Virus record (IMG/VR): IMGVR_UViG_3300010366_000039
Coordinates: 1-31,364 of that record
Length of the DNA: 31,364 nucleotides
DNA from: a virus
Lineage: Duplodnaviria; Caudoviricetes
Strand: one strand, 5' to 3'
Position 1 is the stretch's first letter; each line of letters begins with the position of its first letter. The notes below the pieces were generated by a model. It ran no database searches and was not told the origin of the DNA. It was given only the letters and a program-made list of their open reading frames with translations. Below, in pieces: positions 2,945 through 28,481 of this stretch. The position numbers and the translations under genes are program-made.

Positions 2945-4713
2945 CATCGACCGAGAATACCACCTTGGCCTTGGTTGAGCTGTTCAAGAGCAAGAAGCCC
3001 TTGCAAACTCGTGGGACGGATCGCAGCATTCGGAAAAACCTGATTAGAGAGATAGCGATTTGCCGGAGAGCTTAGCGCCACATTAGCAAGCGTTCGCGGG
3101 GCGGCAGCGCCGGCTGCGGCCCCGATCATGCTGCCGACCATCGGGTGACCTAAGGCCGTCCCGGCCGCATAGCCGACGCCAGAGCCGATCAGGCTGGCCA
3201 AGCCAGTATGGCCGCCTCGCTGAGCCTGCAATCGCTCTGCCGTGCCTGACGTCGGCAGAGGTTTCATGATCGCTTCTCCAGCTCGCGCCAGATCGGCAAA
3301 GTCGCCTTGGCCGCGGCCATACGCCCGTCGATTCTGGGCTACCGTGGCGTTGCGGAGAACTGATGGGGAAATAAGACCCATGGCCGCGTCGGAACCCGGG
3401 CCTGTAGCCGCTCGCTCCAAGACGATCATGTTCTTATATTCGCGCCGCGCTTCCCTCAGAAGTTTGCGATCGTCCGGATTCGTCATGCTCCGCGCCATGG
3501 CGTCATCAAGCGCATTGCGGATGCCGAACAGGGCATCTGAAGCTTGCGGGTCGGAATTGATGAAGCCCCGCGCTGCTTTATCCAGCCGGGAGCGCATAGC
3601 CATGTAGGCATCGCCGGCCAGGATGCCGTTATTCGCAGCCGCGATATCGCCGATGTCCTTGATGACGCCATCAACAATCGGCCTCTGCTGGGAGGTCGGA
3701 ACAAGCTTTTTGTACTCTTGCGATACAGAATTCAGCTCATTTCCCAGATTAGTGTCGAGGGTGACGCTATTGCGTGAGGCAACCGTGTCAAATTTGTTTC
3801 CGATCCGATCAAATGCCGCATCGATCACGGGAGCAGTAGCCCGGGGCTCGCCTTGGATACCAGCACGCTGCAATGCAGCTCCGGTGAACTGCTCGGCCTT
3901 TTGCGTTGCAATATCGGGATACTTGCTTCCCGTCTGCTCGAAATACTGAAGCCGCTTGTTACCAGTGATATCCCCCGGGGTCAGAGCCGTGACTCCTTCC
4001 CCTTGTAGCGTTCTGACCTGTGCCAATCGCTCAGGGTTGGTCGGCAAAGGGGTTAAGACGCGTCCGGCCATGCCAGGAGCCATCCCGCCGGCTACCGCAC
4101 CAGCGACCCGCGCATAGGGTTCTAGAGGACTTCCCTCAATCGCCTGCCCTGCCGCCTCGCTGCCGAGACCAGCACCTAGGGCCGTTAAGCCACGGCGAAC
4201 CAGGCCGCCACCGCCGGGAACCGCCATTCCAGGCAAGAACTCACCGACCATCTGTGCATACTGACCAGGTGTCGTCTGTGGCTGATAGAATTTGCCGGTC
4301 TTGCTCTCAATCGCTCCTTGGATATCGGCCGATGTCGGCGCATTGGCCAGACCAGGATAGAGACCGGCCACGAGCTGATGGACACGGCCAATCTGTTCAT
4401 CACTCAATCCAGCACCTTGGAGCCCGGATTTAATCAACTGGCCGAGATCGCCAATCATGCCGCCAAGGCCGATCGCGCCTTTAGCTGCCCCGATACCGGC
4501 CGACTTGGCAATATCAGTAGCCAATCCAGGGGCAGGTGACGTTTCACGTGAAACGTCGGTGGAACCAGAAAGAGCGCCAATTGGCGGTGTGGCTATGGCC
4601 GGCATGGCCGGGGTCAGAGGTGTCTCAGGCACCGCCGGTGCCCCGGTATCGGCCGGTGCATTGCGGTACATTTGCAGCAATTCCTCGGTGGAAAAGTGCG
4701 AGAAATCGGTCAT
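2944..4713 (-). CDS. Internal virion/DNA ejection protein
   Basis: 589 aa Gly/Ala-rich helical protein, third of three large genes between nozzle and fibre. Confidence 0.75.
   Translation of the reverse strand: MTDFSHFSTEELLQMYRNAPADTGAPAVPETPLTPAMPAIATPPIGALSGSTDVSRETSPAPGLATDIAKSAGIGAAKGAIGLGGMIGDLGQLIKSGLQGAGLSDEQIGRVHQLVAGLYPGLANAPTSADIQGAIESKTGKFYQPQTTPGQYAQMVGEFLPGMAVPGGGGLVRRGLTALGAGLGSEAAGQAIEGSPLEPYARVAGAVAGGMAPGMAGRVLTPLPTNPERLAQVRTLQGEGVTALTPGDITGNKRLQYFEQTGSKYPDIATQKAEQFTGAALQRAGIQGEPRATAPVIDAAFDRIGNKFDTVASRNSVTLDTNLGNELNSVSQEYKKLVPTSQQRPIVDGVIKDIGDIAAANNGILAGDAYMAMRSRLDKAARGFINSDPQASDALFGIRNALDDAMARSMTNPDDRKLLREARREYKNMIVLERAATGPGSDAAMGLISPSVLRNATVAQNRRAYGRGQGDFADLARAGEAIMKPLPTSGTAERLQAQRGGHTGLASLIGSGVGYAAGTALGHPMVGSMIGAAAGAAAPRTLANVALSSPANRYLSNQVFPNAAIRPTSLQGLLALEQLNQGQGGILGR
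4538..4557. promoter_or_regulatory. parS-like site (20-bp perfect palindrome)
   Basis: GACGTTTCACGTGAAACGTC; core GTTTCACGTGAAAC matches the bacterial chromosomal parS consensus TGTTTCACGTGAAACA. Confidence 0.75.
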
Positions 4714-6350
4714 TGCAATGGCACCTTGACGCCCCGACGAATCAGCTCGGCTGCCAAATCGGCTCTCGGGAATGTCGGCAATTCTGGAACGTTTCTCTGG
4801 TAAGACTGCGGCATATCGACGCGGTAAGCTCCCAAAAGCTCGCTTCCAGCCGGCGCTTTGGCGGCTACCTTGTCAACAAGCTGATTATGGCGTTCGATCT
4901 TGCCCCGATTAAGTTTATCGAGAATATCGAACACCCGGCGGATCGATCCTTCCTCAAGCGAGATATCACCGGCGGCCATTTTCTCCGCATATTCGCGATC
5001 CTGATTGGTGATCGACGTCCCTGATCCGAAATTCTTGACTAGGGCGGCAACTTGCTGACCCACCGTTGATTGGAACGTTTCGGTATTGATCGTCCTTGGA
5101 TCGGTCGGCTTGCCCAGAAATTCCATGAATTTGGACAGCGCCAGCCTGTTCTTGGCAAATTGTCCGCTGAAAATACCGGCCTTGGCATCGAGTTGAGCCC
5201 GCAGATCATTAGTCGCTTTGAGAGCGTCCACAGCCGAATTGGCAGTTTCCAGTCCGCTGTCGAGCCGAGTTGTGAACTTCCCGAGAATAGACCGTTGGGT
5301 CTCCGCTTCCTGTTGGGCAGTAGCGGCCTGCTGTTGCCAATCCTCGAACGAGATTGGCTTCTGTCCGGCCGCCTGCGTCTGCTGAACATAGAGACGGTAA
5401 TTCTTGATTTCGTTGGTAGGCTCAAGTGACTTCGACAGTGCGTCGACGCTCGCCTTGAGGGCATCCTGCGTATTCTTCGGCAGGAATGGATTTCCTGCCA
5501 TCGTGGCAAGCTGATTCCGAAATTGCTGCATCTCGGGATTGTTCAGCGTCGCAGGCGGGGCCGTGATCCCTGCCGTCCCCGCTACGGTTGGTGCCTGAGC
5601 CACTTGGGTCATTGGCGTCAAGGTGAATGCCGTGATGGGCTTGCCGGTGATATTTTGGACATAATTTCTCGTTTCTTCCGGCATTTTCAGCGGATTTGCT
5701 CCCGCCTTGAGCCATGCCGAGAGATTTCCAGGGCCCCAATTGTAAGCCGCGAGTGCAAGCCCGTCGTTGCCGAACTGCTTCTTGAGATCGGCCATGTATC
5801 CGGCTGCCCCAGGAATGGCCGATTCCGGTTTGAATGGTTCAACACCGCGCTCCTTGGCCGTTGCCGGCATGAACTGGGCAATTCCCTGAGCACCAGCCGG
5901 ACTGACTGCATTCGGATTAAACCCGCTTTCCTGCCGCAACTGACGCGCAAACTGGCCAGGATCGAGACCAACAGAAGCCGCAGCCGACTTAATCAAATTA
6001 CCGAATTGCCCGATGAGACCAGGTTGTGATTCGCTCGGTTGAGCCTGCGGTTGCTGACCGACACCATAAATCTGTGATGCCATCCTTCCTATGTTTTGCA
6101 GGTCGGGCGGCGCATTTGGAGACACCAGCGGGGCGTTAAGAGAGCCGAACGGTGACGGTTGCGTCGGTTGACCGCCCCCACCCCTAATGGCCTCCGCTCC
6201 CTGTTGAGCGCCAAGCAATTGAAGCTGTAAGGCGAGCAATCGTTCCTGTCGCATTGGATCGGCGAAATTAGCAAGCGCATCTTGAACATTGCCAAGCACG
6301 CCGCCGCCCTGCCCGGATGTCATCCCCAATAGATCGAGAAGGCCAGCCAT
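4710..6350 (-). CDS. Internal virion/ejection protein with soluble lytic transglycosylase (SLT) domain
   Basis: RQESGFNPNAVSPAGAQGIAQFMPATA...ALAAYNWGPGN...EETRNYV gives SLT motifs I-III with the catalytic Glu. Confidence 0.9.
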   Translation of the reverse strand: MAGLLDLLGMTSGQGGGVLGNVQDALANFADPMRQERLLALQLQLLGAQQGAEAIRGGGGQPTQPSPFGSLNAPLVSPNAPPDLQNIGRMASQIYGVGQQPQAQPSESQPGLIGQFGNLIKSAAASVGLDPGQFARQLRQESGFNPNAVSPAGAQGIAQFMPATAKERGVEPFKPESAIPGAAGYMADLKKQFGNDGLALAAYNWGPGNLSAWLKAGANPLKMPEETRNYVQNITGKPITAFTLTPMTQVAQAPTVAGTAGITAPPATLNNPEMQQFRNQLATMAGNPFLPKNTQDALKASVDALSKSLEPTNEIKNYRLYVQQTQAAGQKPISFEDWQQQAATAQQEAETQRSILGKFTTRLDSGLETANSAVDALKATNDLRAQLDAKAGIFSGQFAKNRLALSKFMEFLGKPTDPRTINTETFQSTVGQQVAALVKNFGSGTSITNQDREYAEKMAAGDISLEEGSIRRVFDILDKLNRGKIERHNQLVDKVAAKAPAGSELLGAYRVDMPQSYQRNVPELPTFPRADLAAELIRRGVKVPLQ

Positions 6351-6351
6351 A

Positions 6352-7296
6352 TCAAAGACCCGGAATTATTCCCTTAAGGAACCCGAGAGCAGAGGAAAGG
6401 CCGCTGGCCATCCCCTGGGCCGGAGACATTTGTCCGCCTGTGCCACCACCTTTGAACAGATCGGCAAAGTTGCCGAAGTTGAATGGCGTCGTCTTGGACT
6501 GCACGTCAGTGCCTTGCACATTCTGCGTCCCACCGAGCTGCGCCATGGGAACCACAAGATTGGAAAGAGCGCCAAGGGCCTGAACAGGGATTCCGCGACG
6601 TGCGGCCTCGACAGCCAAAGCCTGCGCGAACGGCTGATTGTTCGCCGCTAGAGCCTGGTCGGCTGTCTGGACGCCCTGAAGCTGATTGCCGAGCTGCGTC
6701 TGATTGAGCGCACTCAGGAGCCCAGTAGTCGTGTTGCCGGCGCCGTAGAGAGCATTGATTGCGCCAAGCTTCTGGTTGGTCATGTTGTTGTAGGCATCGA
6801 GCAAGGTGGGTGCCACGCCGGCAGAAACACCACGTCCAACCTGATAGCCATAATCACCGGAACCGACCGGCGAGATGCCCGCCCCCGCGTACGCTGATTT
6901 GATCCGATCGAGGATATCGCTCGTGAGCTGGTTCGTGACTCCCGTCACCGCCGGATTGGTGTAGGGATTGGTGTCCATCGTCGCGTAAGGCGATATCTGA
7001 CCGACGAATGTATTGTAAGCGTTCGTGGCCATCCCCGTGCCAGGACCGCCACCGCCGGCCAGAAGATTGGCCGCAAGGGCATTGATGCCGCCGGCAAACG
7101 GGTTTCCTGCATTTGCGTTCGCCTGCAATCCCGCGAGAGCCGCCTGCTCGTTTCCGGTAATCTGAGCATTCGGGATGTTGCCGACGATCTGATTGGTGAT
7201 CCCACCGAGTGCCGGCCACAGAGGCGACCATGGGCCTGTGGTCGTCGTCTTGTTGATGGTATCTGTAGTATTTGTTGTGTTATCGAAGAAACCCAT
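6352..7296 (-). CDS. Pilot/DNA transfer (ejection) protein
   Basis: N-terminal Thr-rich stretch ending GPW; Gly/Ala/Asn/Gln-rich; immediately after nozzle gene. Confidence 0.7.
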   Translation of the reverse strand: MGFFDNTTNTTDTINKTTTTGPWSPLWPALGGITNQIVGNIPNAQITGNEQAALAGLQANANAGNPFAGGINALAANLLAGGGGPGTGMATNAYNTFVGQISPYATMDTNPYTNPAVTGVTNQLTSDILDRIKSAYAGAGISPVGSGDYGYQVGRGVSAGVAPTLLDAYNNMTNQKLGAINALYGAGNTTTGLLSALNQTQLGNQLQGVQTADQALAANNQPFAQALAVEAARRGIPVQALGALSNLVVPMAQLGGTQNVQGTDVQSKTTPFNFGNFADLFKGGGTGGQMSPAQGMASGLSSALGFLKGIIPGL

Positions 7297-9455
7297 CAGC
7301 GTTGTCCTGTCGGGAAAACATCCATGACCATCCCCATGGCATAGGTCCAGAGCGTTGCAGCCGGAATCCTGATCCGACCTCTAGCTAGTTGCGTATCGCG
7401 CCGCTGTGGGCACCGGCCCTGCGAGTTAATGAGCGTCTCGGACGTCTGCGAGAGAGCAGATTGTGCATTGTCCCGATAGCGGATCGAACCATAGACGGTT
7501 GGCGCATCGGTCCGAGGCTTGATGCTAGAGATAAACATGCGGCGCGAGTCGTCGCCTTGTTCGGGTATCTCGAGTGTTCCCTCAAGATTCGTTCCGTTGA
7601 AGAACCCGAGCTGTCCTGCCGTTGTTGCGCCGGCAAGGCTGGCATTCAGGGCCGACTGAACGGCATCAAGGGACGATAAGGTTATCGTGTCGATATTGGT
7701 CCCGAACAGGCTATCCAGGCCATCCAAGGTCACACCGGGCCGCGTAATCGACGCGAGAAACTGACCCGATATGGAGAGGACCGGAGACCACCGATCGAGC
7801 CCGAAATCATAGCAGAGCATCTTGTCATATTGCGTTGTCGATGAGGCCGATTGTGATTTGTAGGCCCAGAATGCTCGGGTACCAGATGGATCGGCAGCGC
7901 CGATGAGCATCTGGAGATTACCCAGGTCTAGGTCGGCCAGAAAGGTTCTATCGACGCGCTCCTTCCCGATCGGCGACAACTCACCACCGTAATACATCTG
8001 GAAGCCTTGCGGCGAAACGTACAGGACGCGCTCACCGGATCGCACGATGGAGTAGGCCCCGAGCAATCCCTTTTCCTCGGATACGCGCTCGAAGCTAAAG
8101 GCAGGCTTCGCTCCCGAGATATAGGTCATCTTGCGGGTAACGGTTTCCTGCAAGACAAGACCGAACTCTCCGCCGGCTACCCCGCGCACGACGCCACCAT
8201 CAGGAAGGTCCACGAAGTTGGCAAATCCAGTTCCCGCCGTCCATGTCGTGATACCGTCTAGATCAGAATTATGGACTCGATTAGGATTGGACGTGAGGCC
8301 AGAGAGAACGAGGAACCTCCCGACAACGGCAACATAGCGCGCGGTTGGGGGCGAGCCGGCCAGGTCGGCGAATGCCGTCCCGGTCAAGGCAATAGACTGC
8401 GGGGCCGTATTGGCCTGCACGGCCACAGCCGTCGATCCGAACTGGGCGAATTGCCACTGATCGGTGGTTGGAACGGCGGAGTAGGCAAGCCCGCTCTTGG
8501 AAACATCGATCCAATCCAGTGTCGTATTGTTCAGAGTGAATAGGCGTGTAGATGTCGCGGCAAATACAAGGATCGTTCCATCGGTCTTGCGCGCGTAGAA
8601 CAGTCCACGGCAAATACTATTTGCTGCCGTGTCATAGGCCTTCTGTGGCGATGTAAAAGCTGCCGTCCACCGGGCAATGCCGACGCTCATCCTGAATTCG
8701 TCAAGCCAGCCATTCCACTCGTTGCCGGTCTGCTCACCATTCCTACCGACCGAAATCTGGTTGGCTGAATCCTGAACTGTCGCGCTGAATGCGGTGTTAC
8801 TCCCTTCCTGCGTTCCATCGATAAACAGTTTCAGCACGTTCGACGTGCGCACGAAGGCAACATGATGCCAACCCGTATTCAGCGCGTTGGTGAATTGCGT
8901 GGTTCCGGTGACCGTCGTTAGTGACGCACCATCGGATACCGAAGCTTGGATCACATTGCCAGACGTGCGCAAGATCGCAAAGCTGGTAGTCGCGGCTGTA
9001 GCCGTATTGTTGCACTGGCCGGCAATGCGCAGCGCCGAACCACCTGCGCCTACACACTTGAACCAGAAATCTATCGTAAAATCCCCGGAACCTAGCGTGA
9101 AATCTGCGTGATCGTTGGCTGTGACGTAATCGCCAGTCCCATCGAACAGACCGGACGCTCCGCCGAAGTGACTGTCCGCCGTATCGATCTGGGCATTGCC
9201 ATTGGCCGTCCATGAATGCGCAGAGCCCCCGGAATTATCGTCCGTGAACGTCGTGGAAGCATCCGTGCCATCCATGTGGAGCAGGATTTTCGTGTAGGTA
9301 TCATTCCCGGCCGCCAACGGGCTTGTGTAGGCCTGCAAGGCAGCCATCGGCCCGTACCCATCACCACGCGGCAGAACACCGGCCAAGACCTGCGTGTGCT
9401 GGCCGCGAAAGTCGTTCACGTCAGGCCGAAATTCTGGGAACGGAATGAACGTCAT
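7296..9455 (-). CDS. Tail nozzle/tubular protein B (P22 gp10-like) with inserted LamG domain
   Basis: PF.EFRPDV...PRGDGYGP N-terminus, beta-rich body, position after adaptor; KILLHMDG...WHHVAFVR...LFIDG...GWLDEFRMS.GIARWT insert. Confidence 0.85.
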   Translation of the reverse strand: MTFIPFPEFRPDVNDFRGQHTQVLAGVLPRGDGYGPMAALQAYTSPLAAGNDTYTKILLHMDGTDASTTFTDDNSGGSAHSWTANGNAQIDTADSHFGGASGLFDGTGDYVTANDHADFTLGSGDFTIDFWFKCVGAGGSALRIAGQCNNTATAATTSFAILRTSGNVIQASVSDGASLTTVTGTTQFTNALNTGWHHVAFVRTSNVLKLFIDGTQEGSNTAFSATVQDSANQISVGRNGEQTGNEWNGWLDEFRMSVGIARWTAAFTSPQKAYDTAANSICRGLFYARKTDGTILVFAATSTRLFTLNNTTLDWIDVSKSGLAYSAVPTTDQWQFAQFGSTAVAVQANTAPQSIALTGTAFADLAGSPPTARYVAVVGRFLVLSGLTSNPNRVHNSDLDGITTWTAGTGFANFVDLPDGGVVRGVAGGEFGLVLQETVTRKMTYISGAKPAFSFERVSEEKGLLGAYSIVRSGERVLYVSPQGFQMYYGGELSPIGKERVDRTFLADLDLGNLQMLIGAADPSGTRAFWAYKSQSASSTTQYDKMLCYDFGLDRWSPVLSISGQFLASITRPGVTLDGLDSLFGTNIDTITLSSLDAVQSALNASLAGATTAGQLGFFNGTNLEGTLEIPEQGDDSRRMFISSIKPRTDAPTVYGSIRYRDNAQSALSQTSETLINSQGRCPQRRDTQLARGRIRIPAATLWTYAMGMVMDVFPTGQR

Positions 9456-10063
9456 GGCGTCGGCGCATCCACACGAATGCCGGATGGTGACTTGCTGCGG
9501 CGCGATAGCTCCTTGATTTCCTCGAAAATCTCATCCCGTCGGCCTTTCCAGATCACGGGACCATTCGGAAAATCAGGATTGCGATTGAAGGCTTCCCCTT
9601 CAATCAGGGAGCCGAAAAGATACAAATCCGGATGTGTGCTATAGAGCCAATTGACACCACCCGATAGCGCCGTGATCTTCTGATAATACTCAAATTCCAG
9701 CGATGTCGATGTGGTGGGCCTGATCTTGAGCGTCGCGCCCTCGATCGTAAAGATCACCGGCGTTCCCGATGGCGTGGTCGGATATTCCCGTTGCAGCTTG
9801 GATGGAGTGACATATTCGAGGTCTTGCCGAATCGATGTGCCCACATTAGTGACCCTGATCCAGCTCAGATAGTCAGTCGGTAACGTCACCGAACCCGCCG
9901 ATGGCGATAACGTTGTGGAAGTCTCCATCTGCCGAACCAAAAGCCGACGATTTGCACAAGCCTCAAAGATAGTGACAAAATCATCCAATTGAGACGTAAG
10001 ATCGTCCCGCGCGAGCCATGAGGCGATCGACGTCTTAAGCTCCGCATAGGTCGTCAGGGGCAT
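9452..10063 (-). CDS. Head-tail adaptor (tail tubular protein A-like)
   Basis: TYAELKTSIASWLARDDL...EACANRRL.VRQME...NWLYSTHPDLYLFGSL motifs. Confidence 0.85.
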   Translation of the reverse strand: MPLTTYAELKTSIASWLARDDLTSQLDDFVTIFEACANRRLLVRQMETSTTLSPSAGSVTLPTDYLSWIRVTNVGTSIRQDLEYVTPSKLQREYPTTPSGTPVIFTIEGATLKIRPTTSTSLEFEYYQKITALSGGVNWLYSTHPDLYLFGSLIEGEAFNRNPDFPNGPVIWKGRRDEIFEEIKELSRRSKSPSGIRVDAPTP

Positions 10064-10372
10064 TTATTTGGTCCAGCCGACCATGTGGCTAGGGCCATCA
10101 GTCCGCAGATAGGCCCATTCAGGATCGTTAAGCTTACGGGCCACAATCTCATCCCACTCTGAGGATAGGTAACGAACATTGTGGCCATGTTGCAGTTCCT
10201 CATTGAGCCACTTCACCATGATGACAGCCGGAATGGTGGCAATATGCCGTCCCCAGTCGGATTTCTGCTCCATGGAGCGAAGTTGCTTGTTGCGTTCAAG
10301 GATCGGCTCTACATCCTGCTGGGAGACCGCAACAACTTCCCTATTGCCTGCTGGTATGATTTCCGTCTTCAT
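10064..10372 (-). CDS. Conserved phage protein (head-tail region)
   Basis: QDVEPILERNK...GRHIATIP...KLNDPEWAYLRT motif. Confidence 0.8.
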   Translation of the reverse strand: MKTEIIPAGNREVVAVSQQDVEPILERNKQLRSMEQKSDWGRHIATIPAVIMVKWLNEELQHGHNVRYLSSEWDEIVARKLNDPEWAYLRTDGPSHMVGWTK

Positions 10373-10496
10373 TTTCGCAATTCATCTTTTCAAGAAGAGC
10401 TTTCATGTCTGCCTCAAGCTGGGCAATCAGGCGCAGGAATTTCACTTCGGATTCCTGTTCCTTCTTCCATTCGTCGAAATTGACCAGATTTGTCAT
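10341..10496 (-). CDS. Small hypothetical protein (51 aa, absent from ORF track)
   Basis: MTNLVNFDEWKKEQESEVKFLRLIAQLEADMKALLEKMNCENEDGNHTSRQ; ATGA overlap with upstream stop; fills the gap. Confidence 0.55.
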   Translation of the reverse strand: MTNLVNFDEWKKEQESEVKFLRLIAQLEADMKALLEKMNCENEDGNHTSRQ

Positions 10497-10807
10497 TTGG
10501 TCAGCTCCACCAATGTCATAGTCGGCGTGGAAGCATCATTGCTGATGACCGAGACCTTTTGGCCAGGGGTTAGTTTGTAGCGCGAGACCCAATTGGCCGG
10601 CACGAAGGCGCTCGTAGAATCGGCCACTGGAGCTTCGCCGATCGCCACCCGAATTCCCGATGTCGAGCTGGTTGACAGGCCAGGTGCGGAGATTTCGACC
10701 ATGTAGGTCTCGGAACCGACCGATGTCGTTGATGCCGCCGCACCACCGGCTGAATTGACAGCCAGAATCCTCGAATTGAGGATTCTCCATTCTGATTCGA
10801 AAGCCAT
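10493..10807 (-). CDS. Small beta-rich virion protein
   Basis: Start MAFESEW 2 nt after upstream stop; Ser/Thr-rich; PANW..YKLTPGQKVSVI. Confidence 0.7.
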   Translation of the reverse strand: MAFESEWRILNSRILAVNSAGGAAASTTSVGSETYMVEISAPGLSTSSTSGIRVAIGEAPVADSTSAFVPANWVSRYKLTPGQKVSVISNDASTPTMTLVELTK

Positions 10808-10809
10808 GG

Positions 10810-11208: not shown

Positions 11209-11220
11209 TTATTTTGCTCC

Positions 11221-12308: not shown

Positions 12309-12326
12309 GGGTGCTGCGTCCAATCC

Positions 12327-13235: not shown

Positions 13236-13249
13236 CAAATCTCCGGTAA

Positions 13250-13272
13250 GGGCGGACGGCTGGATGCCGCCC
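13250..13272 (-). terminator. GC stem-loop after capsid gene (weak terminator or mRNA stabiliser)
   Basis: GGGCGG-N11-CCGCCC; only TT follows, no U-tract. Confidence 0.35.
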
Positions 13273-20819: not shown

Positions 20820-20820
20820 A

Positions 20821-21024
20821 TCACTTCTCCTTCACAGCACATAAATCCAGCGTCTTCTCCAAAATGCGCTCCGCCCTCTCCGCCACCTTCACCGCAGTAT
20901 ATGCGTTGATGACCATGTAAAGCACGTTGAACACCACCAGAGCCAAAATCATGGGCGACGACTTGAGGCTATCGATGAGATTGGACGCTACCCTGCCACT
21001 CTCCTCAATCGCGCCAGGATTCAT
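20821..21024 (-). CDS. Small single-TM membrane protein (holin-like?)
   Basis: MNPG..SLKSSPMILALVVFNVLYMVI; ATGA overlap with upstream gene. Confidence 0.6.
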   Translation of the reverse strand: MNPGAIEESGRVASNLIDSLKSSPMILALVVFNVLYMVINAYTAVKVAERAERILEKTLDLCAVKEK

Positions 21025-21302
21025 GCAGCGATTGGCCGTATTCGCTTGCCACGCAATGGAACGCGCGGATTGCCTCGAAAGTCTTTCAGACCCTCTGGTA
21101 TTTCGCCCAATTCCCAAGCAACTCCCTTAGGATCGTTTGAACAAAGAAAAAGCCCATGCGCAATCTTAAATCTTATCGATTCCTCAGTATAGAAAATGCA
21201 GCCCTCATCAAGAGGCCACGTTACACCACTGTCATAATAGGTATAAACTTCCAAATCCTGCGGAGCCTGCTTGAGCAATTCAATCAATTCCATGACTTTC
21301 AT
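21021..21302 (-). CDS. Hypothetical protein
   Basis: MKVMELIELLKQAPQDLEV, a common phage N-terminal motif; overlap-coupled. Confidence 0.7.
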   Translation of the reverse strand: MKVMELIELLKQAPQDLEVYTYYDSGVTWPLDEGCIFYTEESIRFKIAHGLFLCSNDPKGVAWELGEIPEGLKDFRGNPRVPLRGKRIRPIAA

Positions 21303-21490
21303 TCAACGACCATCCCAAATGGCATTTCCTCAGGCTTGAGTCGATAAACGCGCCAACCATTGCACGAATCCCACATGGTGCCATCCTCAAAGAGAATCGC
21401 ATGTGCAGGCCGTGTCGAAGCGCCAGGAACAAAAGTAACCCAATTGCCGCCTTCAGAAGGACTGACCGCTATCGTTCGGATTTCCCTCAA
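21299..21490 (-). CDS. Hypothetical protein
   Basis: TTG start overlapping upstream stop; HAILFEDGTMWD. Confidence 0.6.
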   Translation of the reverse strand: MREIRTIAVSPSEGGNWVTFVPGASTRPAHAILFEDGTMWDSCNGWRVYRLKPEEMPFGMVVE

Positions 21491-21702
21491 GCGTCATCAC
21501 CCTCTAGCCGCCGATTGATTGACTCAAGCTCCTGTATCGTCGCAGGCATCTGCGCAAACTGAACCGCACGTAGGGCAGAAAGAATGGCCTCGGAATGGTC
21601 AGATACAAACTCCGCCATGCGGTCGCCATCATACTGAGGATCACGCGCCGCGTCGAAATCAGCAATCAAAGCCGCAAGCTCATCGGCTAGATTAGTGCTC
21701 AT
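21487..21702 (-). CDS. Hypothetical protein
   Basis: ATGA-coupled ORF. Confidence 0.6.
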   Translation of the reverse strand: MSTNLADELAALIADFDAARDPQYDGDRMAEFVSDHSEAILSALRAVQFAQMPATIQELESINRRLEGDDA

Positions 21703-21917
21703 GATTTGGGCCGCATTTCACGAATATTCAGATAAATGCTTACCAGAAAACAAAACACAGCCACCACGAAAAATCCAAAGCCAAAAAACCAACTTTTAAA
21801 TCCGTACAACGCTATGAGGTGTGCCAGAAAAAAAGCCCATCCCCGAATTAACCATTCGCCTCCTGGCATCGACTGAAGATTATCGAAAATCCGATTCGCA
21901 ATGTTTGCTATCATCAT
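21699..21917 (-). CDS. Small membrane protein
   Basis: Two Phe-rich hydrophobic segments; ATGA overlap with terL stop. Confidence 0.6.
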   Translation of the reverse strand: MMIANIANRIFDNLQSMPGGEWLIRGWAFFLAHLIALYGFKSWFFGFGFFVVAVFCFLVSIYLNIREMRPKS

Positions 21918-23239
21918 GCTACCGCCACAGGCTGGAAATCCAGTTTACGCCAAAACTTCGCAGAGCTGACAGGCTCGACATACGTCACAGCCATCATCCC
22001 GAACGCATCAGCCGCATGTGACGACCAATCATGGTCAGGCCCAAGCCCTATGTTGCGCTGACTGTCCCGACGCTCATGATAGAACCCTAGAGCATCCCGA
22101 CCTGCCTCCGTCGTCTTTGCATTGAACCATAGCCTCGACCCGAGCCGCCGGATTGCCTCGATCCGCATAGCAGCTGCGCCCGGTCCCTGATTGGGCACAA
22201 CCGTCACCGAGAACCCCGCATCCTGCAGATGCGCCTTGTACGTCTTGCCCGTGATGTTGTTCGTATTGATCCCATCATGCGGCAGAACACACTCAGCACG
22301 CTCGTAATCGTGCTTGCGAAGCCAATTGACATAGAAGGCGAGCACCTGACCAACTCCCTCGCAATAATCGAGTACTAGGATACGATCGCCTACGAACTGG
22401 CAGACCCAGATACAGAGGGCATCAGCCTTTGCACCGGCACCACCGATGTCCCAATAAGCTCGAAGCGGCAATAGAGGATCAACGGCGAGGGCGGTGATTC
22501 TTCCTTCCTGCTCTGCCTTGGCAAGCAACTTGGCGAAGTAGGCACCTGAGAAAGCCTTCGCGTACTCACCTTCCCAGATATGATCGTACCTTTCGGCATA
22601 ATGTTCGAGGTCATGCAGACGCTCTTTTTCAAGGACATCGTTCCACCATGGATTATCACGCCAGTTCGTCCGTACGACGATGGCATTTGACGGCGGATTG
22701 ATCCGGAAGAATTTATCGATCGCATCGATTTTGCGCGTTGGGTTCCATCCTGCCCAAATTTGGCTTTCAGGAAGACGAATCGTCGGGCGCAACAGCTCAA
22801 GAGAGCGTTCTGAGAAATTCTGCCCTTCCTCGATATAGGCAATGCGGAAGCCTTCGAGCGATTTGATCGATTCGGCGGTGTGATCCTGCATTCCGTTGAA
22901 AATGATCGTTCCGTCCCCTGGGGTTTCAATACGATCATGCCAGACCTTGAAAAGCTTCCCGAGGCCGAATGACTGGATTTTGCTTTCAAGGAGGAACTTG
23001 CAGGATTCCTTGAGGGTCCGTTGCACCTCACGCAAGCAGACTGCGCGAGTTCCAGGAACCATGACGCATTCTTCAACGAGCATTTCGCCAAAGAAATGGG
23101 ATTTGGCCGACCCGCGACCGCCATAGGCCGCTTTATATCTCGCCTGATCGAGGAGCGGTCGGAAGATCGGGGCTGTCGGAATGTTCAGCGTGCCCGTTTT
23201 CTCGACCATTTGCGCTATCGTGCTTTGGCTTTGGCGCAT
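21914..23239 (-). CDS. terL: Terminase large subunit (PBSX/Terminase_3-like)
   Basis: Walker A YGGRGSAKS, Walker B AYIEEG, WNP coupling motif, nuclease WDIG and HDWSSHAADAF; start may be the MVEK ATG 30 nt downstream. Confidence 0.95.
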   Translation of the reverse strand: MRQSQSTIAQMVEKTGTLNIPTAPIFRPLLDQARYKAAYGGRGSAKSHFFGEMLVEECVMVPGTRAVCLREVQRTLKESCKFLLESKIQSFGLGKLFKVWHDRIETPGDGTIIFNGMQDHTAESIKSLEGFRIAYIEEGQNFSERSLELLRPTIRLPESQIWAGWNPTRKIDAIDKFFRINPPSNAIVVRTNWRDNPWWNDVLEKERLHDLEHYAERYDHIWEGEYAKAFSGAYFAKLLAKAEQEGRITALAVDPLLPLRAYWDIGGAGAKADALCIWVCQFVGDRILVLDYCEGVGQVLAFYVNWLRKHDYERAECVLPHDGINTNNITGKTYKAHLQDAGFSVTVVPNQGPGAAAMRIEAIRRLGSRLWFNAKTTEAGRDALGFYHERRDSQRNIGLGPDHDWSSHAADAFGMMAVTYVEPVSSAKFWRKLDFQPVAVA

Positions 23240-23513
23240 TGAGAATCGTTCGGCTGATTTGCTGGATCAGGTTCAGGGGATTCTGGCCGCCTTCGAGGGT
23301 GGTTGTTTGCAGTCGCGAGTGAAGATATGGGGCGGCGGCTTTTGCAGCTTCGAACCGAAGATTTTCGTCGACGAGGGGATTTCGCAGGATATTGAGCATA
23401 TAATCAAGAGGGGACAATCCATGCTCAAGACGACTTTTTTGCAACAATTGCAGCTTTAGATCAGCTTTATTCGGAACACCTTTTGGCCGTCCTCTTTTTT
23501 TTACGGTTTCCAT
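23133..23513 (-). CDS. terS: Terminase small subunit (putative)
   Basis: GRPKGVPNK..SPLDYML..RFEAAKAAAPYLHSRL; immediately upstream of terL. Confidence 0.75.
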   Translation of the reverse strand: METVKKRGRPKGVPNKADLKLQLLQKSRLEHGLSPLDYMLNILRNPLVDENLRFEAAKAAAPYLHSRLQTTTLEGGQNPLNLIQQISRTILNAPKPKHDSANGRENGHAEHSDSPDLPTAPRSGEI

Positions 23514-23536
23514 TTGCGAATCAATCTCACTAAGGA

Positions 23537-23725
23537 TTATTTTCCGCGCCGTCCTCTGGATATTTTCCCGAGTGTGATTGCGAGGTTAGCTTCTTTGCCG
23601 AGGAGACCGCCTGCGGATTTTTTCTTTTGCGCGAATGCTTGGGTGGACATACCGGCGCGTTTAGCTTTGGCGGAGAAGGCGCCGGGACGTTTGATGGCGC
23701 CTGCGATCCATTTAGTTTGGGCCAT
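23537..23725 (-). CDS. Small basic conserved phage protein
   Basis: MAQTKWIAGAIKRPGAFSAKAKRAGMST..A.LA.TLGK; AGGA RBS. Confidence 0.75.
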   Translation of the reverse strand: MAQTKWIAGAIKRPGAFSAKAKRAGMSTQAFAQKKKSAGGLLGKEANLAITLGKISRGRRGK

Positions 23726-23740
23726 GGTGTTTCCTGAGGG

Positions 23741-23966
23741 GTGGTGCAGGGCCGATGGGTAGGACTGGGCATCGGCCCTGCGAACCACGAGAGACGCTTG
23801 CGGGTGAAATGGGGGTTCATCCCGCAAGTAATTTGCGTCTGCCATGGAGTGGGGAGCAGGTCAAGGGCGGCGGCTAGCTTGTTCACAGGTTGGATGGATT
23901 GAGCGAGTGGACTGCACTGCGTCGCGCGTTGCGCTCCTTAGTGATCCTCGGTCGCAAGCGACCTGC
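23741..23966 (-). ncRNA. Putative structured RNA leader of the late operon
   Basis: Perfect 12-bp stem 23746-57/23770-81; stem 23792-808/23816-840; GGTCG-CTTG-CGACC hairpin 23950-63; no convincing ORF. Confidence 0.45.
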
Positions 23967-24067
23967 GGGCGGCTGTTGTGGGTTGGGTTATATGACGCGC
24001 GAGCAGATAGGGGCTAGGAATACTTTGTTTGTCAAGTGGGTGCTTATGTTGTTGATTTCATTGGTGA

Positions 24068-24110
24068 ACATTGTGGCTTTTGCGAAAATGTTCCATAATA
24101 CATTGTGGCT
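24068..24110. repeat. 11-bp direct repeat ACATTGTGGCT x2
   Basis: Copies at 24068-24078 and 24100-24110 in an AT-rich divergent intergenic region. Confidence 0.7.
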
Positions 24111-24144
24111 CAATTGTGAAATCTGCGCAATTTTCTTGCTTTCT

Positions 24145-24184
24145 CGATATCTCCTATTGACATCCTCCTAATATCAGATATCTT
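24145..24184 (+). promoter_or_regulatory. Sigma70-type promoter with GATATC operator pair
   Basis: TTGACA(24157-62)-N16-TATCTT; same layout as 30561-30598. Confidence 0.7.
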
Positions 24185-24209
24185 GTATGCACCACAACGG
24201 AGAACCCCC

Positions 24210-24452
24210 ATGACAGCAACACAATACATCAACGAATCACTTCTCGGATTTACCAATCCAGACTCCTCATGTCCGTTTCTGTCCACGTCGAACAGTAGTG
24301 ACGCCTGGTATATTGGCCGGTGGCTGAATCAAACACATCGAACAGCACCGCGTGATGTACGCAAAAGCCGAGGGGACACTTGGCACATCAATGGCATGAA
24401 GGTGCGCCTGAACTACATCCAAGGGTGCACAGAGATTGAAAGGATTGCGTGA
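24210..24452 (+). CDS. Hypothetical protein
   Basis: GGAG RBS then ATG at 24210, just after promoter. Confidence 0.7.
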   Translation: MTATQYINESLLGFTNPDSSCPFLSTSNSSDAWYIGRWLNQTHRTAPRDVRKSRGDTWHINGMKVRLNYIQGCTEIERIA

Positions 24453-24514
24453 TCGCAGCGGATGCCGGTTGCGGCCGGCATCAACGGCGACCACCGCCAA
24501 CACGGGAGAGTACC

Positions 24515-24739
24515 ATGAACATCAGACGCGGAACCTGCAACTTTGTGAGCATAGCGGCCGCTGTGTCCTACTACGTCCCCTATTACGGATGCCGCATAGA
24601 AGCGGCCCTCGCCGTTGCCCGCAAGATCAGGGAAGGCGAAATCCAAGTCGGAAAGCCCCAGGTGCTTCCGGGCGAACGCCTTGTCCTGATCGACAATCGC
24701 ACCCGCTACGCCATTCTAGACGCCATTCTAGAGGTCTGA
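24515..24739 (+). CDS. Hypothetical protein
   Basis: GGGAG RBS; MNIRRGTCNF..VARKIREGEIQVGKP. Confidence 0.7.
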   Translation: MNIRRGTCNFVSIAAAVSYYVPYYGCRIEAALAVARKIREGEIQVGKPQVLPGERLVLIDNRTRYAILDAILEV

Positions 24740-24742
24740 TCC

Positions 24743-24979
24743 ATGTCGTGGATGACCGACAACGCCGACCGCTTGCGCGAGGAAGCCCAGATGCGCCGCA
24801 ATCGTGGGCAGTCCGTCGGCAAAAACGCCAAGGGCTGGGATGTGAAGCGGCCGGACCCTACCGACGATCTAGAGCTGATCCGCGCCAAGTACAAGGCGAT
24901 ATTTGCCGACCACTGGACTGGCGTTCTCGCTGACTACCAGTGGAACAAGCTACCCGATGACTGCAAAATTCCCTTCTGA
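24743..24979 (+). CDS. Hypothetical protein
   Basis: GAGG RBS; ends DDCKIPF. Confidence 0.65.
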   Translation: MSWMTDNADRLREEAQMRRNRGQSVGKNAKGWDVKRPDPTDDLELIRAKYKAIFADHWTGVLADYQWNKLPDDCKIPF

Positions 24980-24991
24980 TGGAGGAATGAC

Positions 24992-25162
24992 TTGGACACA
25001 ATTCAAGTACCGCGAGAACTATTGGAGAGCCTACTAGGCTTTGCCGCTTCACACTTGCGCGCCCTAGAGTGTCGCCAAAACACCAAACTCAACGCAACCG
25101 GCAAAATCCTGATTAAGGAAATCGTCTACCAAACCGAGGCATTGTTATGGCCATCAACCTGA
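24992..25162 (+). CDS. Hypothetical protein (56 aa, TTG start, absent from ORF track)
   Basis: GGAGG at 24981-85; MDTIQVPRELLESLLGFAASHLRALEC. Confidence 0.55.
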   Translation: MDTIQVPRELLESLLGFAASHLRALECRQNTKLNATGKILIKEIVYQTEALLWPST

Positions 25163-25341
25163 CGATCGATGAAATCCGCTCCGGCACCGTGCGGCAGGGA
25201 AACCTGCCGTGCGTGCCGCCGGAAACCGCAAAGGCCCGCGCGCAATTGCTGGCCGATGCAAAGCTCGTAAGCAAGCGCTTGCAGCAACCATGCGATCTCG
25301 GACTATTCAGCACCGAGCACAATCAACTCACCCTGCTCTGA
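25147..25341 (+). CDS. Hypothetical protein
   Basis: GAGG RBS; QQPCDLGLF..QLTL C-terminus. Confidence 0.65.
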   Translation: MAINLTIDEIRSGTVRQGNLPCVPPETAKARAQLLADAKLVSKRLQQPCDLGLFSTEHNQLTLL

Positions 25342-25350
25342 GACACACCC

Positions 25351-25443
25351 ATGATCCGCGATTGCATCGACGGCGTGCTGTTCGTCATTGCAGCTTCCGC
25401 CCTCATCTGGTGGATGGGAACCCTATCCGCGATCCAGTGGTGA
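25351..25443 (+). CDS. Possible 30-aa hydrophobic peptide
   Basis: MIRDCIDGVLFVIAASALIWWMGTLSAIQW; weak RBS. Confidence 0.35.
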   Translation: MIRDCIDGVLFVIAASALIWWMGTLSAIQW

Positions 25444-25611
25444 TCCAGCACGCAAAACTACAAATGGCTGAACTTTCCCAGGAGGATCAGTCATTGCCAA
25501 AGGCTCATGCTCAAGATTTTTGTTAAGTTTATCAATCTTTTGCTCCAATTGGTTCACTTGTCGCTGCAATTCCTGCACTGCCGCAACCACCATCCTCAAG
25601 TTCATTTCCAT
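25423..25611 (-). CDS. Small coiled-coil protein
   Basis: AGGAG RBS; heptad VQELQRQVNQLEQKIDKL. Confidence 0.6.
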   Translation of the reverse strand: MEMNLRMVVAAVQELQRQVNQLEQKIDKLNKNLEHEPLAMTDPPGKVQPFVVLRAGSPLDRG

Positions 25612-25742
25612 TGGTTCACTCCTGAGACCGGTTAGCGTTTATTCTCGCAGCCGAGGTCGCCGATGCGTTATTTTCCTACCCTATGCCCGACACCGATCTA
25701 CCGAGAAAGCCCATCCACGACCCTCCTATCTCGCTTGAGAGG

Positions 25743-26021
25743 TTACGGCTCGTCTCTCCAATCCTCCAGTGCCCGGATTCTGGTTTCCAAAGCCTCGATC
25801 ATGAGCAGACAGGCTGTGATATCAGGACCGATCCGGCCAAGCGAAACATTCGATCGCAAGGATCTATCCCGATCATAACCATGGCGCACAAGCAATTGCT
25901 CAATCCATTCTTTTCGTATTTGGTCCCCAATCTCGATTTGACGCTTTTTTGCCTCAAAATCAGGATCGGATAATCCGCGACCCAGTCCTGATAGCCATGC
26001 CGGCAATCCAAGTGCGCTCAT
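25743..26021 (-). CDS. Hypothetical protein
   Basis: Start MSALG by ATGA overlap with the nusG-like gene. Confidence 0.6.
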   Translation of the reverse strand: MSALGLPAWLSGLGRGLSDPDFEAKKRQIEIGDQIRKEWIEQLLVRHGYDRDRSLRSNVSLGRIGPDITACLLMIEALETRIRALEDWRDEP

Positions 26022-26566
26022 ATCACGGGCCTCAATTGTTCGAAATCCATTCCCACGCTGTGATCCTTGCCAAGGAATGACACGAGAATTTCCGCCCTTG
26101 CCTGTGCATTGTCCGCCGATTGCAGCTGCCCGATGAACCCGGAAAACGGGCCTGCAACAACCTCGACCGAATCGCCAGCGCACATACGCTCGACTGCCCG
26201 CGTCTGATCAAATGCCCCGACCATTTGGCTCGCCTTGAGGGCCGCCACCATGGCGACGTCGCGCGGCCCCATCCTCTTTGGTGCACCGTCGGCAAGCACT
26301 AAGTCACATACCCCCTGAACCTGCCTGATCGGTGACCATGGCTTCTCAAGCGGATCGAATCCAACGAACAGATATCGGGCGAGCAGGGGCCGTTCCTCTG
26401 CCCTCTTGTATCGCGCGTGCCTGATCCACCGTTTTTCCATCGGCAGATAGGTCGAGTAGCCCAATCCTTTTATCCCGGCCTCGGCACGCGCTTCACATTT
26501 GGCATGCGTGTAGACCACGAACCAGCCAAAGCCCGGACGAATCGCATCGAAATCGTCAATGCACAT
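26018..26566 (-). CDS. nusG: NusG/RfaH-family transcription antitermination factor (paralog)
   Basis: NGN domain WFVVYT..E..TYLP..RPLLARYLFV..IRQVQGV; KOW domain GDSVEVVAGPFSGFIG..ILVSFLG. Confidence 0.9.
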   Translation of the reverse strand: MCIDDFDAIRPGFGWFVVYTHAKCEARAEAGIKGLGYSTYLPMEKRWIRHARYKRAEERPLLARYLFVGFDPLEKPWSPIRQVQGVCDLVLADGAPKRMGPRDVAMVAALKASQMVGAFDQTRAVERMCAGDSVEVVAGPFSGFIGQLQSADNAQARAEILVSFLGKDHSVGMDFEQLRPVI

Positions 26567-26569
26567 GGT

Positions 26570-26977
26570 TCACTTCTCGAATCTGCCGACTGGCCGAATC
26601 GTCCCCATTCGAGTCAGCTCATCGTAATTGGATCGCTCGATATCTACCGCAGGTTCCGAGCCTCGATTCATGAATTTTTCGAGCGCTGATTTATCAATAT
26701 AAACCTTGGCTGGGGGGACATATTTCAGGTCTAGCCATTCCGGCCATTGAGTGGGAACCGTATAAAACTTGGTTGTTCCACGTATTGCTGTAAATAGTGC
26801 ATACGGCAACCATTGAAGGTGATGAACGAAATAATACATCCATGCCTCGAATTCTTTAGTTATATCCCTCGGATCAAGGATGAATAGTGAGTTTTTCTTG
26901 TCACTAGGCAAGGTTTTGATAAAAGTTTCGACCGTCTCTGTGTACCGACGCGCCGTTGGATTGCTCAGATTTGCCAT
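26570..26977 (-). CDS. Hypothetical protein
   Basis: GAGG RBS; AT-richer ORF; overlaps end of the replication gene. Confidence 0.65.
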   Translation of the reverse strand: MANLSNPTARRYTETVETFIKTLPSDKKNSLFILDPRDITKEFEAWMYYFVHHLQWLPYALFTAIRGTTKFYTVPTQWPEWLDLKYVPPAKVYIDKSALEKFMNRGSEPAVDIERSNYDELTRMGTIRPVGRFEK

Positions 26978-27650
26978 TCGAATACCTCTTCAGCAGTTCC
27001 TCGTGAGTGGGAAGACCGGGGCGCCATCCGATCGGTTCATTTGCCTGTCCAGTCGAGCTGGGAAGGTTCGTGGCTTCGTATTCCTCCCAGCGCCGCTGAT
27101 GGAGCCAGGTCACCGCCTGAGCCACGTAGGGGCTTCCCACGGCGTTCTTGGCGGCAAGCTGAGCAGCATACCGCCTGGCCCCAGCAATGATCACCTCGGG
27201 ATCGACCCCCGATTTGATCGCAGCCACGAATTTCTTTTTTGCCGGCGTCGGCGGGTTTGAGCCATCCCGTTTCGGATAGGCGGCCCAAAAATCAGGAAAC
27301 CGATCGAGGGATTTGGGAGCCATCTGCCCAGAAACTTGCTCCGTGGAGATTCTTTCTTTCTTCTTTCTTTCTTTCTTTTCTTTCTTAGAGTCCTTGTTTG
27401 TTTTTTCTATCGTATTTATGGCCATCGAAGGAAGAAAGTTGGGAAATTCTTCAGTGTTTTCAATTGTCACCGTGACAGGCTGTGACAGCCTGTGACGCTC
27501 ACGACAGAGTCTTTGGCGCTCGGCTGCACGCTCCCGCGTTCTCTGCAATTTAGCAAAATCTTCCTGTTGATCGATGACAACTGCGTCGACGATCTGCTGG
27601 GCGCTCATGCCCGAATCGACCATGATCTGGAGGATGGCGGCGCTAATCAT
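26904..27650 (-). CDS. Phage replication initiator-like protein
   Basis: GGGAG RBS before MISAAILQIM; RERAAERQR linker; C-terminal FPDFWAAYPKR..AKKKF..YVAQAVTWLHQRRWE domain. Confidence 0.7.
   Translation of the reverse strand: MISAAILQIMVDSGMSAQQIVDAVVIDQQEDFAKLQRTRERAAERQRLCRERHRLSQPVTVTIENTEEFPNFLPSMAINTIEKTNKDSKKEKKERKKKERISTEQVSGQMAPKSLDRFPDFWAAYPKRDGSNPPTPAKKKFVAAIKSGVDPEVIIAGARRYAAQLAAKNAVGSPYVAQAVTWLHQRRWEEYEATNLPSSTGQANEPIGWRPGLPTHEELLKRYSNGKSEQSNGASVHRDGRNFYQNLA
27351..27505. other. Putative replication origin inside the initiator gene
   Basis: GTGAC repeats at 27472, 27482 and 27492 (10-bp period) plus inverted GTCAC; pyrimidine-only tract 27351-27386. Confidence 0.5.
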
Positions 27651-27839
27651 GCTGGTCTCCCTTTTTTCTGGAGGCCAGGGCTTGCGCGGTGGAACAAAAT
27701 CCCCTATACAGGATTTGTACGCACCGGCAGCTAGACCCTGCCTCGACTGGTTACCTTGTCTCTCTGAGCCGGCCACCTCCACGGGTGCTGCCGGCTCATC
27801 CTTTTCATGGTCATCCATCTGCCATGGATTTGTCAACTC

Positions 27840-28481
27840 CTAGACGCCTAGGATGATGCGCAGCGTTTCGACGTCGGTTCTAACCTTTTCCTCGGCCTCT
27901 AGGCGCCGAGCGATCTTATTGCAGGCATGGAGTACCGTCGTATGGTCCCGCTTGGCCATCAGGCGGCCGATCGCCGGCAGCGACAGCATCGTGTACTCAC
28001 GCGCTAGATACATCGCCACCATGCGCGGATAGACGATTCTCTTTGTACGCAAGGGAGAGAGCAGAACACGCAGCTCGATGCGAAAATGGCCGCACACAGC
28101 CGTTACGACCTGTTGCAGAGTCGGCCTCGTCGGAAGACTCAAGTCGATGGTGTCAATATTTTCTTCTGTGGATAACTTTTTATCCTGTGCGAACTGTGGA
28201 TAAGTCGCTGCAATATCTTGAACAATTGGTTTAGACAATTCAGTCAACAGCCTTTGCTGGACTGTCTTTTTTCTAAATTTATCGACCTTGGCTATCAATT
28301 CCCGTCGTCGATCTTTCTGTGCCTGCCTCCTGGCTCCATAGGCCCGACGTGAAAGGATATCCAGCTCGGTTGACACATGCCCGTTCATCGGCCGCATGAG
28401 GCGCTCACGTCGGTCCCTTGCCTCGATCGGGTCAAACATCATTGTCCTCCCATGATATGCCCATCTTATCGCGAAGTTCAT
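27840..28481 (-). CDS. Stand-alone DnaA C-terminal (domain IV) HTH protein
   Basis: LRTKRIVYPRMVAMYLAREYTMLSLPAIGRLMAKRDHTTVLHACNKI; no AAA+ domain. Confidence 0.88.
   Translation of the reverse strand: MNFAIRWAYHGRTMMFDPIEARDRRERLMRPMNGHVSTELDILSRRAYGARRQAQKDRRRELIAKVDKFRKKTVQQRLLTELSKPIVQDIAATYPQFAQDKKLSTEENIDTIDLSLPTRPTLQQVVTAVCGHFRIELRVLLSPLRTKRIVYPRMVAMYLAREYTMLSLPAIGRLMAKRDHTTVLHACNKIARRLEAEEKVRTDVETLRIILGV
28167..28203. promoter_or_regulatory. Two perfect DnaA boxes (TGTGGATAA) and an intervening partial box
   Basis: 28167-75 and 28195-203 are the reverse complement of TTATCCACA; TTATCC at 28180-85. Confidence 0.7.

Follow-up and report, generated by a model that had tools for sequence, protein, structure and literature searches.

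Host-type parS and DnaA boxes on a soil podophage genome are likely independent elements

Do several sites of the bacterial chromosome cycle, when they occur together on one phage genome, work as a single system? The question is raised by IMG/VR record IMGVR_UViG_3300010366_000039, a linear sequence of 31,364 nt, 75% complete, which was analysed over its whole length (the window). The window comes from soil and belongs to an SU10-capsid podophage whose host, judged from relatives of its capsid and portal as alphaproteobacterial, is likely a Bradyrhizobium-type bacterium. A preliminary description had listed a host-type parS, two DnaA boxes, a gene coding for domain IV of DnaA only (here DnaA-IV) and a weaker dif-like arm, and had tentatively linked them as a candidate chromosome mimic by which the phage could plug into or sabotage the replication and segregation cycle of its host, for example as an episome maintained by host ParABS. 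We confirmed parS, boxes and gene, and both parS and the boxes go beyond chance in a record that shows no ParB match. The dif-like arm is no better than chance, and parS and the DnaA-IV gene with its boxes are likely two independent cis-elements, gained separately, and not one system.

The parS site and its occurrence in phages

The core of parS is an exact GTTTCACGTGAAAC. It is the sole window match to the 16-bp consensus at up to three mismatches, with 0.06 matches expected and 6 of 100 shuffles giving one, and when the codons of 32 window genes were resampled synonymously it arose 5 times in 2000, a chance of 0.25% per window from codon choice. The same 14-mer is present without mismatch in four of the five candidate host genomes, clustered in three of them; the palindromic core is in other words identical to chromosomal host sites. 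The GTGAAA half, which is the conserved half of Caulobacter parS sites (PMC5815017), is intact, and the flanks agree with those of other high-GC viral parS sites, the letters G, T and C at flank positions 1-3 being respectively the second, first and first commonest in such loci. The window parS is very likely a selected site for host ParB.

The site occupies codons 54-58, reading VSRET, in the variable Pro-rich N-terminus of a gene whose product is predicted, from gene order, to be a DNA-ejection protein. In the closest relative found, G001, whose capsid is 88% identical to that of the window, the gene at the same place codes for an unrelated protein (E >= 3) and contains a near-copy of parS, GTTTCCCGTGAAAC, which matches at 13 of 14 positions and stands at +168 from the ATG, compared with +160 in the window, in a different frame. 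Apart from parS, the two genes show no notable DNA match over the first ~310 bp of the window's ejection gene. Beyond G001, a direct search of viral contigs found no close relative of the window ejection protein or NusG, and a metagenome scan found no closer relative and no parS within one mismatch in 79 loci (the window's own contig, L323, being dropped). parS at up to two mismatches was also absent from four full-genome phage records, ppBeUSDA76-2, ppBjS10J-1, RHph_N28_2 (50 of 52 kb) and Mvi-Yong1342-1. The parS-like 16-mers of G035/G036 and L206/G010 were set aside because of peptide conservation (CFTGN, VSREA).

Among phages at large, ~8,400 viral stretches are estimated to contain the exact parS core, a figure extrapolated from 1 of 64 parts of the viral contigs, compared with 29 for a reversed palindrome control, which is a ~290-fold excess. 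Of 144 open reading frames (ORFs) flanking the first 80 of 134 parS loci, 31 had a Pfam match, mostly to terminase, capsid, portal, phi29-like and microvirus families; no host origin-region family was among these 31, and the remaining 113 gave no match. A 30-nt query around the window parS matches 239 isolated phage records, including 98 from Arthrobacter and 58 from Microbacterium phages. Arthrobacter phage VroomVroom (L601, OQ938592.1) has six exact sites (4447, 4968, 17372, 19115, 25325 and 42666), with neither parA nor parB in its annotation, and Ruegeria phage RpAliso (L600, OR257569.1) has two, at 2022 and 3004, within the 4.3 kb read. Around phage DnaA-IV or DnaA genes, 80 loci contain nine parS sites at up to one mismatch (eight non-redundant, after merging two near-identical contigs), where the control mean is 0.16 and 0 of 419 permuted palindromes reach nine; in the whole records of these loci, parS is present in 9 of 79, compared with 0 for the control. 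When five parS-bearing records were tested, three had an integrase and one a weak ParB_N match below the cut-off. We do not claim that parS clusters around DnaA-IV genes: 8 of 9 sites lie within 8 kb of one, but short records confound this count.

Two further patterns were observed in these scans. Exact parS cores adjoin microvirus capsid, Rep or scaffold genes in L012, L017 and L060 (position 601), which are small single-stranded DNA phages, and paired parS-like sites occur in L429 (8247 and 8291, 44 bp apart) and L366 (678 and 835, 157 bp apart).

The DnaA boxes, the DnaA-IV gene and the dif-like arm

The window holds two exact TTATCCACA boxes where 0.17 are expected, and 0 of 100 shuffles reach two. 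None of 2000 codon resamplings gives two boxes in the DnaA-IV gene, and one of the boxes uses the rare TTA codon; with a relaxed consensus the count is not unusual (2 vs 1.37 expected, 36 of 100 shuffles). The boxes, like parS, fall within coding sequence, a point that the preliminary description had not made. They lie in an island which is AT-rich at third codon positions and whose GC dip of 0.18 is deeper than that of all 68 other solo DnaA-IV genes (median 0.04). Since none of those 68 genes holds an exact box, the two-box arrangement is lineage-specific; the same two-box pattern was found in 0 of 4 host genomes. Exact boxes show a mild excess in DnaA-IV loci (11 vs 3.5; 5 of 150 controls) and a similar one in loci without DnaA-IV (8 vs 2.8; 14 of 150 controls). 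Boxes upstream of the terminase in the capsid family were considered and rejected, the hits being just scattered ones with one mismatch. As a separate observation, small clusters of boxes are present in G033 (3.3-3.4 kb upstream of the portal) and in G036 (two boxes in inverted orientation, separated by 19 bp, close to the end of the record).

The DnaA-IV protein matches PF08299 at E 1e-25 over residues 123-190 and has no other Pfam domain, as had been described. A DnaA initiator combines AAA+ with domain IV; the window protein reaches only 94 bits with TIGR00362, whose cut-off is 344, and in the C-terminal part only, and PRK06030 models also score far below their cut-off. When it was aligned to E. 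coli domain IV (1J1V), equivalents of R399, P423, D433, H434, T435 and H439 were found to be kept, R145 of the window aligning to R399; the E. coli numbering was inferred from the 1J1V chain length. In the structural model (mean pLDDT, a confidence score, of 85), residues 45-93 form a long helix, and the fit to 1J1V is 0.9 A, so that model and alignment agree in giving the protein a domain IV fold with box-reading residues. By a loose pattern, R399, P423 and H439 have retained equivalents in 53 of the 68 solo genes. The gene is present in 9 of 50 capsid-family records (the 50 longest of 80 loci) and in 6 of the 8 complete ones, and many annotated phage homologs exist.

Long DnaA-like genes were also seen in 12 of 80 phage loci, for example L406:6828-8267, L418:6942-8282, L450:7020-8225 and L448:7026-8309. 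Three were tested, and each scores below the TIGR00362 cut-off, with a match that spans the AAA+ region and domain IV. An N-terminal 'RRAR' stretch is common to some long and some solo genes, and this shared stretch hints at AAA+ loss as the origin of the solo ones.

Concerning the dif-like arm, the preliminary description stands only in the choice of the 9-mer. Each of the five candidate host genomes has exactly one site that fits an alphaproteobacterial dif pattern, and the 9-mer TTATGGAAC (24090-24098, minus strand) matches the XerD-side arm of this single site in all five, so that the right arm had been picked. However, the 9-mer is present in 26 of 100 shuffles, on the XerC side only 1 of 7 core bases matches (by eye) at the proper 6-bp spacing, and no full dif is found in the window at up to three mismatches. 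Across 270 phage records the XerD-like arm is not enriched (11 vs a control mean of 12.2), and the three full dif matches, all at two mismatches, are not convincing. An E. coli-type XerD arm was rejected with 4 matches vs 3.8 expected. The 9-mer overlaps CATAAT between two ACATTGTGGCT repeats of an intergenic control region; the exact IHF consensus is absent from 23500-24500.

The statement that the window has no parA, parB or xer gene holds for the last two, a profile search finding neither a ParB_N nor a tyrosine-recombinase match in this 75% complete record; for parA no search with a profile of its own was made, and none of the 36 window ORFs in a general scan hit such a profile. In 20 capsid-family records, among them the window with its 75% completeness, ParB_N (PF02195) had no match, and an integrase profile matched 10, including 7 of the 8 complete ones.

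Separate elements and their possible roles

A scan for co-occurrence with controls, which the preliminary description had proposed, divides its elements: parS is enriched (9 vs 0.16), the dif arm is not, and parS shows no association with DnaA-IV. For loci without DnaA-IV we used GapR as a marker of alphaproteobacterial phages, excluding four loci on contigs already in the first set. parS was found in 4 of 60 GapR loci with no DnaA-IV within 8 kb, where the control mean was 0.08 and 0 of 419 control palindromes reached this number. Pooled, parS is present in 8 of 94 loci with DnaA-IV vs 4 of 60 without (Fisher p 0.77, from a small sample with 8-kb flanks and uncorrected kinship), and in 12 of 154 alphaproteobacterial-type phage loci overall. 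In the window, parS and the boxes are 24 kb apart. In a close strain (run X7), a contig of 40.7 kb keeps 24050-24104, although the flanks of this piece differ, and 28460-31364, and has 3,284 other bases in place of 25389-28459; other runs likewise break at 28460, and the contigs of four public runs did not extend over parS. Because this block is replaced as a whole, the NusG, initiator and DnaA-IV genes travel as one cassette. Since the elements vary independently in relatives and the dif arm is at chance level, the proposed single system is not supported.

The explanation that we favour, by a modest measure, is that parS loads host ParB, that the boxes act as a local operator for the replication operon, and that the dif-like arm is a chance match. 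After injection or excision, host ParB would very probably bind parS on the free phage circle and spread. MipZ is an inhibitor of FtsZ. A contact between ParB and MipZ is stated in PMC5815017, and a transient use of parS might, as a tentative step in which we place slightly less belief than doubt, tether phage DNA to the host partition machinery, so that growing copies draw ParB and MipZ off the chromosome and delay segregation and division in lytic growth. One strong plasmid-borne parS lowers the viability of Caulobacter ~1000-fold (PMC5815017); this toxicity, and the integrase that 7 of the 8 complete relatives carry, speak against the first suggestion that host ParABS maintains the phage as a stable episome. 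For the boxes, we lean towards a DnaA-IV protein that would be a GafY-like transcription regulator still reading DnaA boxes, and it or host DnaA would bind both of them, tuning transcription into the initiator gene and its iteron origin. GafY is a solo domain-IV protein that activates transcription (PMC9632790). The window protein resembles GafY/HdaB (CCNA_01111) and the N-terminal domain of GafA in three respects: domain IV of DnaA stands alone, the setting is phage-derived with an antiterminator-type gene nearby, and the protein would be, as proposed here, a transcription regulator rather than an initiator (PMC9632790, PMC7049699, PMC9638019, PMC11150451). It differs in its neighbours (GafY pairs with GafZ, DUF6456, coded downstream; downstream of the window gene lie the initiator, a 135-aa gene and a NusG paralog) and in a predicted helical N-terminus of ~120 aa. 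For GafY, activation of the structural operon depends on IHF. The box-reading DnaA-IV family is a plausible phage-side counterpart of GafY as an activator of gene transfer agents (GTA).

Several observations weigh against this explanation. The peptides VSRET or FHVK occur in 0 of 119 homologs of the ejection gene, the outer parS flanks C..G are rare (3 of 161 viral sites), and other phage parS sites are mostly situated close to the replication region, many of them at gene junctions, and not in a late gene. The capsid family (116 records, 2.02 Mb) yields no exact and three one-mismatch parS sites. Of 200 controls, 3 give as many, and one of the family sites falls within a VSREA peptide that a homolog shares; in GapR loci with DnaA-IV, parS is found in 0 of 16. 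As for the boxes, no promoter is called in the island (28150-28299), and the DnaA-IV gene of G001 has two degenerate TCCACAG elements, one of which may be explained by protein-level conservation, since it overlaps the shared peptide KKLST. Moreover, the analogy with GafY is architectural only, because GafY/HdaB lacks the R399 that the window protein keeps (PMC7049699), and GafY binds a non-DnaA-box element with IHF (PMC11150451), whereas the window protein has boxes in its own gene.

That parS, boxes, DnaA-IV and a XerD site jointly maintain the phage as an episome under the control of the host cell cycle is, in our view, very improbable. Every element except the dif arm is real, G001 has near-copies of both parS and boxes, neither partial record shows an integrase, and exact boxes show a mild excess in DnaA-IV loci; however, boxes are enriched to a similar degree without DnaA-IV, parS and DnaA-IV do not co-occur, the elements are far apart with one on a swappable cassette, plasmid parS is toxic in Caulobacter (PMC5815017), and an integrase is found in most complete relatives and in three of the five parS-bearing records tested. 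We also think it unlikely that the island with its two boxes is the phage origin, or an accessory part of it, opened by host DnaA or by the DnaA-IV protein. Of oriC-type sequence features the window has two boxes and the AT-rich island. The island is unique, the next gene codes for an initiator, the 36 scanned ORFs include no recognised helicase or loader gene, and the three long DnaA-like genes of other phages that were tested match DnaA over the AAA+ region, all of which would suit an origin. Yet the phage protein has no AAA+ domain, the AT-rich part lies 5' of TTATCCACA, opposite to the canonical oriC geometry, and G001 has no initiator gene between DnaA-IV and NusG. The GTCAC-repeat region within the initiator gene, where iterons stand beside an A-rich tract, would be the better origin candidate.

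A different role for the protein, which we hold to be rather improbable as its main one, would be that of a weapon against host initiation, occupying oriC boxes or titrating HdaA, with the internal boxes incidental or autoregulatory. The box-reading residues, kept also in most solo genes, fit this role, and HdaB binds HdaA and deregulates initiation when overexpressed (PMC7049699), but later work ascribed what HdaB does to an activation of GTA (PMC9632790), and the operon position with NusG and the initiator suits phage gene control. Such an activity is compatible with the favoured explanation as a second role. Finally, parS, boxes or both might be neutral matches thrown up by a very large scan, to which we assign only a small probability: the sites are unconserved in most relatives, the outer parS flanks are sub-optimal, and codon choice alone gives parS at the low rate stated above, but neither the parS excess in viral contigs, nor the syntenic near-copy in an unrelated gene of G001, nor the codon resamplings for two boxes would be expected from chance.

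A wider claim, which we put forward as speculative and rather doubtful, would be that phages far beyond phi29 have repeatedly gained host parS as a general cis-element, present in about 1 in 12 alphaproteobacterial temperate-phage loci and in many actinophages with no ParB of their own. Where ParABS-MipZ is essential, replicating phage DNA would then seize ParB, move to the origin pole and stall division, and in the window clade the site would have been fixed twice, at the same spot, in two unrelated ejection genes. Should recruitment of host ParB be routine for phages whose hosts do not sporulate, the partition machinery would be a common phage target with a purpose beyond spore entrapment. 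Stacks of elements that look like a chromosome mimic can also be a coincidence of separately common ones, parS and DnaA-IV each being frequent, without association.

Known systems and gene layout

The candidate hosts, which belong to the Hyphomicrobiales, are not known to sporulate. In Bacillus phage phi29, host parS sites serve Spo0J-dependent spore entrapment (PMC2731898). The window resembles phi29 in carrying host-type parS; it would likewise rely on host ParB, and no ParB match is found in its 75% complete record. But phi29 is lytic and has five sites for segregation into the prespore, whereas the 31 kb of the window contain a single site, located within a virion gene, and not the several per genome of the spore-entrapment type. 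Its family is also mostly integrating, in alphaproteobacterial hosts where ParABS is essential and extra parS toxic. Phage-plasmids of the P1/N15 type have their own parA-parB beside the centromere; in the window, parS lies within the virion module and ParB_N is not found. CTXphi-like elements exploit dif and XerCD, and the window shares with them one 9-bp match to the XerD-side arm, but this match is at chance level in a promoter-like region and has no XerC arm at 6-bp spacing. DnaA reportedly controls the lambda pR promoter. In T5, the injection-stop region has eight DnaA boxes in a non-coding terminal repeat (10.1101/866236). Host-type boxes near replication or control functions are common to T5, lambda and the window; lambda encodes no DnaA-like protein, whereas the window boxes are embedded in a phage DnaA-IV gene. 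Host parS (phi29, PMC2731898) and DnaA boxes (T5, 10.1101/866236) on phages are already known, and what is new is the enrichment of parS in phages of non-sporulating alphaproteobacteria, where extra parS is toxic. Searches of the openly accessible literature brought up neither a survey of orphan parS sites among phages of alphaproteobacteria nor a study devoted to the phage DnaA-IV gene family.

Table 1. Positions of the features discussed, numbered from the first nucleotide of the window
Feature	Position	Strand	Remarks
Ejection-type gene	2944..4713	-	Predicted third DNA-ejection (internal virion) protein; follows SLT-bearing gene 4710-6350
parS	4538..4557	.	Exact 14-bp core 4541-4554 within perfect 20-bp palindrome; no strand
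AT-rich intergenic control region	24068..24190	+	11-bp ACATTGTGGCT repeats at 24068 and 24100; CATAAT 24094; TTGACA promoter-like site 24157
NusG/RfaH-type antiterminator gene	26018..26566	-	PF02357, PF00467, phrog_6386; in exchangeable cassette
Phage replication initiator gene	26904..27650	-	phrog_270, E 2e-17; probable ATG 27650
Candidate lambda-like origin	27350..27502	-	Within initiator gene; three GTCAC repeats, 10-bp spacing (27472-27496), beside A-rich tract
Stand-alone DnaA-domain-IV gene	27840..28442	-	Probable ATG 28442; open frame extends to 28481
AT-rich island	28150..28299	.	150 bp, 36% GC, inside DnaA-IV gene; no strand
DnaA box 2	28167..28175	-	TTATCCACA; codons TTA TCC ACA
DnaA box 1	28195..28203	-	TTATCCACA; same orientation, 28 bp from box 2, other reading frame

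The scan of the 36 ORFs against Pfam and PHROG recognised a late block with a PBSX-type terminase, SU10-type portal, capsid, adaptor and SLT-bearing internal virion gene, and upstream of it the NusG paralog, the replication initiator (phrog_270), the Bac_DnaA_C gene and a DUF1064 resolvase; none of the 36 was recognised as CI-like. Capsid relatives are held by genomes of Xanthobacteraceae, Bradyrhizobium, Kaistia and other alphaproteobacteria, and among isolated phages the portal is best matched by Bradyrhizobium phage ppBeUSDA76-2, whose annotation includes an integrase; the relatives of the window phage are mostly integrating prophages of Hyphomicrobiales.

Downstream of the DnaA-IV gene the order is initiator, 135-aa gene, NusG. 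The 135-aa gene (26570-26977) gave no Pfam, PHROG, NCBIfam or usable Atlas match, and by position is a candidate helicase-loading partner. In G001 the DnaA-IV/NusG operon (25403-26410) is inverted relative to the late genes, without the initiator gene in between. The downstream, promoter-like part of the control region is duplicated at 30560-30600, and the promoter or operator look-alikes at 24143-24190 and 30560-30600 share the arrangement CGATATC..TATTGACA..AATATCAGATATC. A 57-aa gene of the YlcI/YnfO family (30368-30541) adjoins one of these regions and may code for a repressor of both, and a short segment with an ENETRADL-type reading is present twice, at 29703-30107 and 30368-30541.

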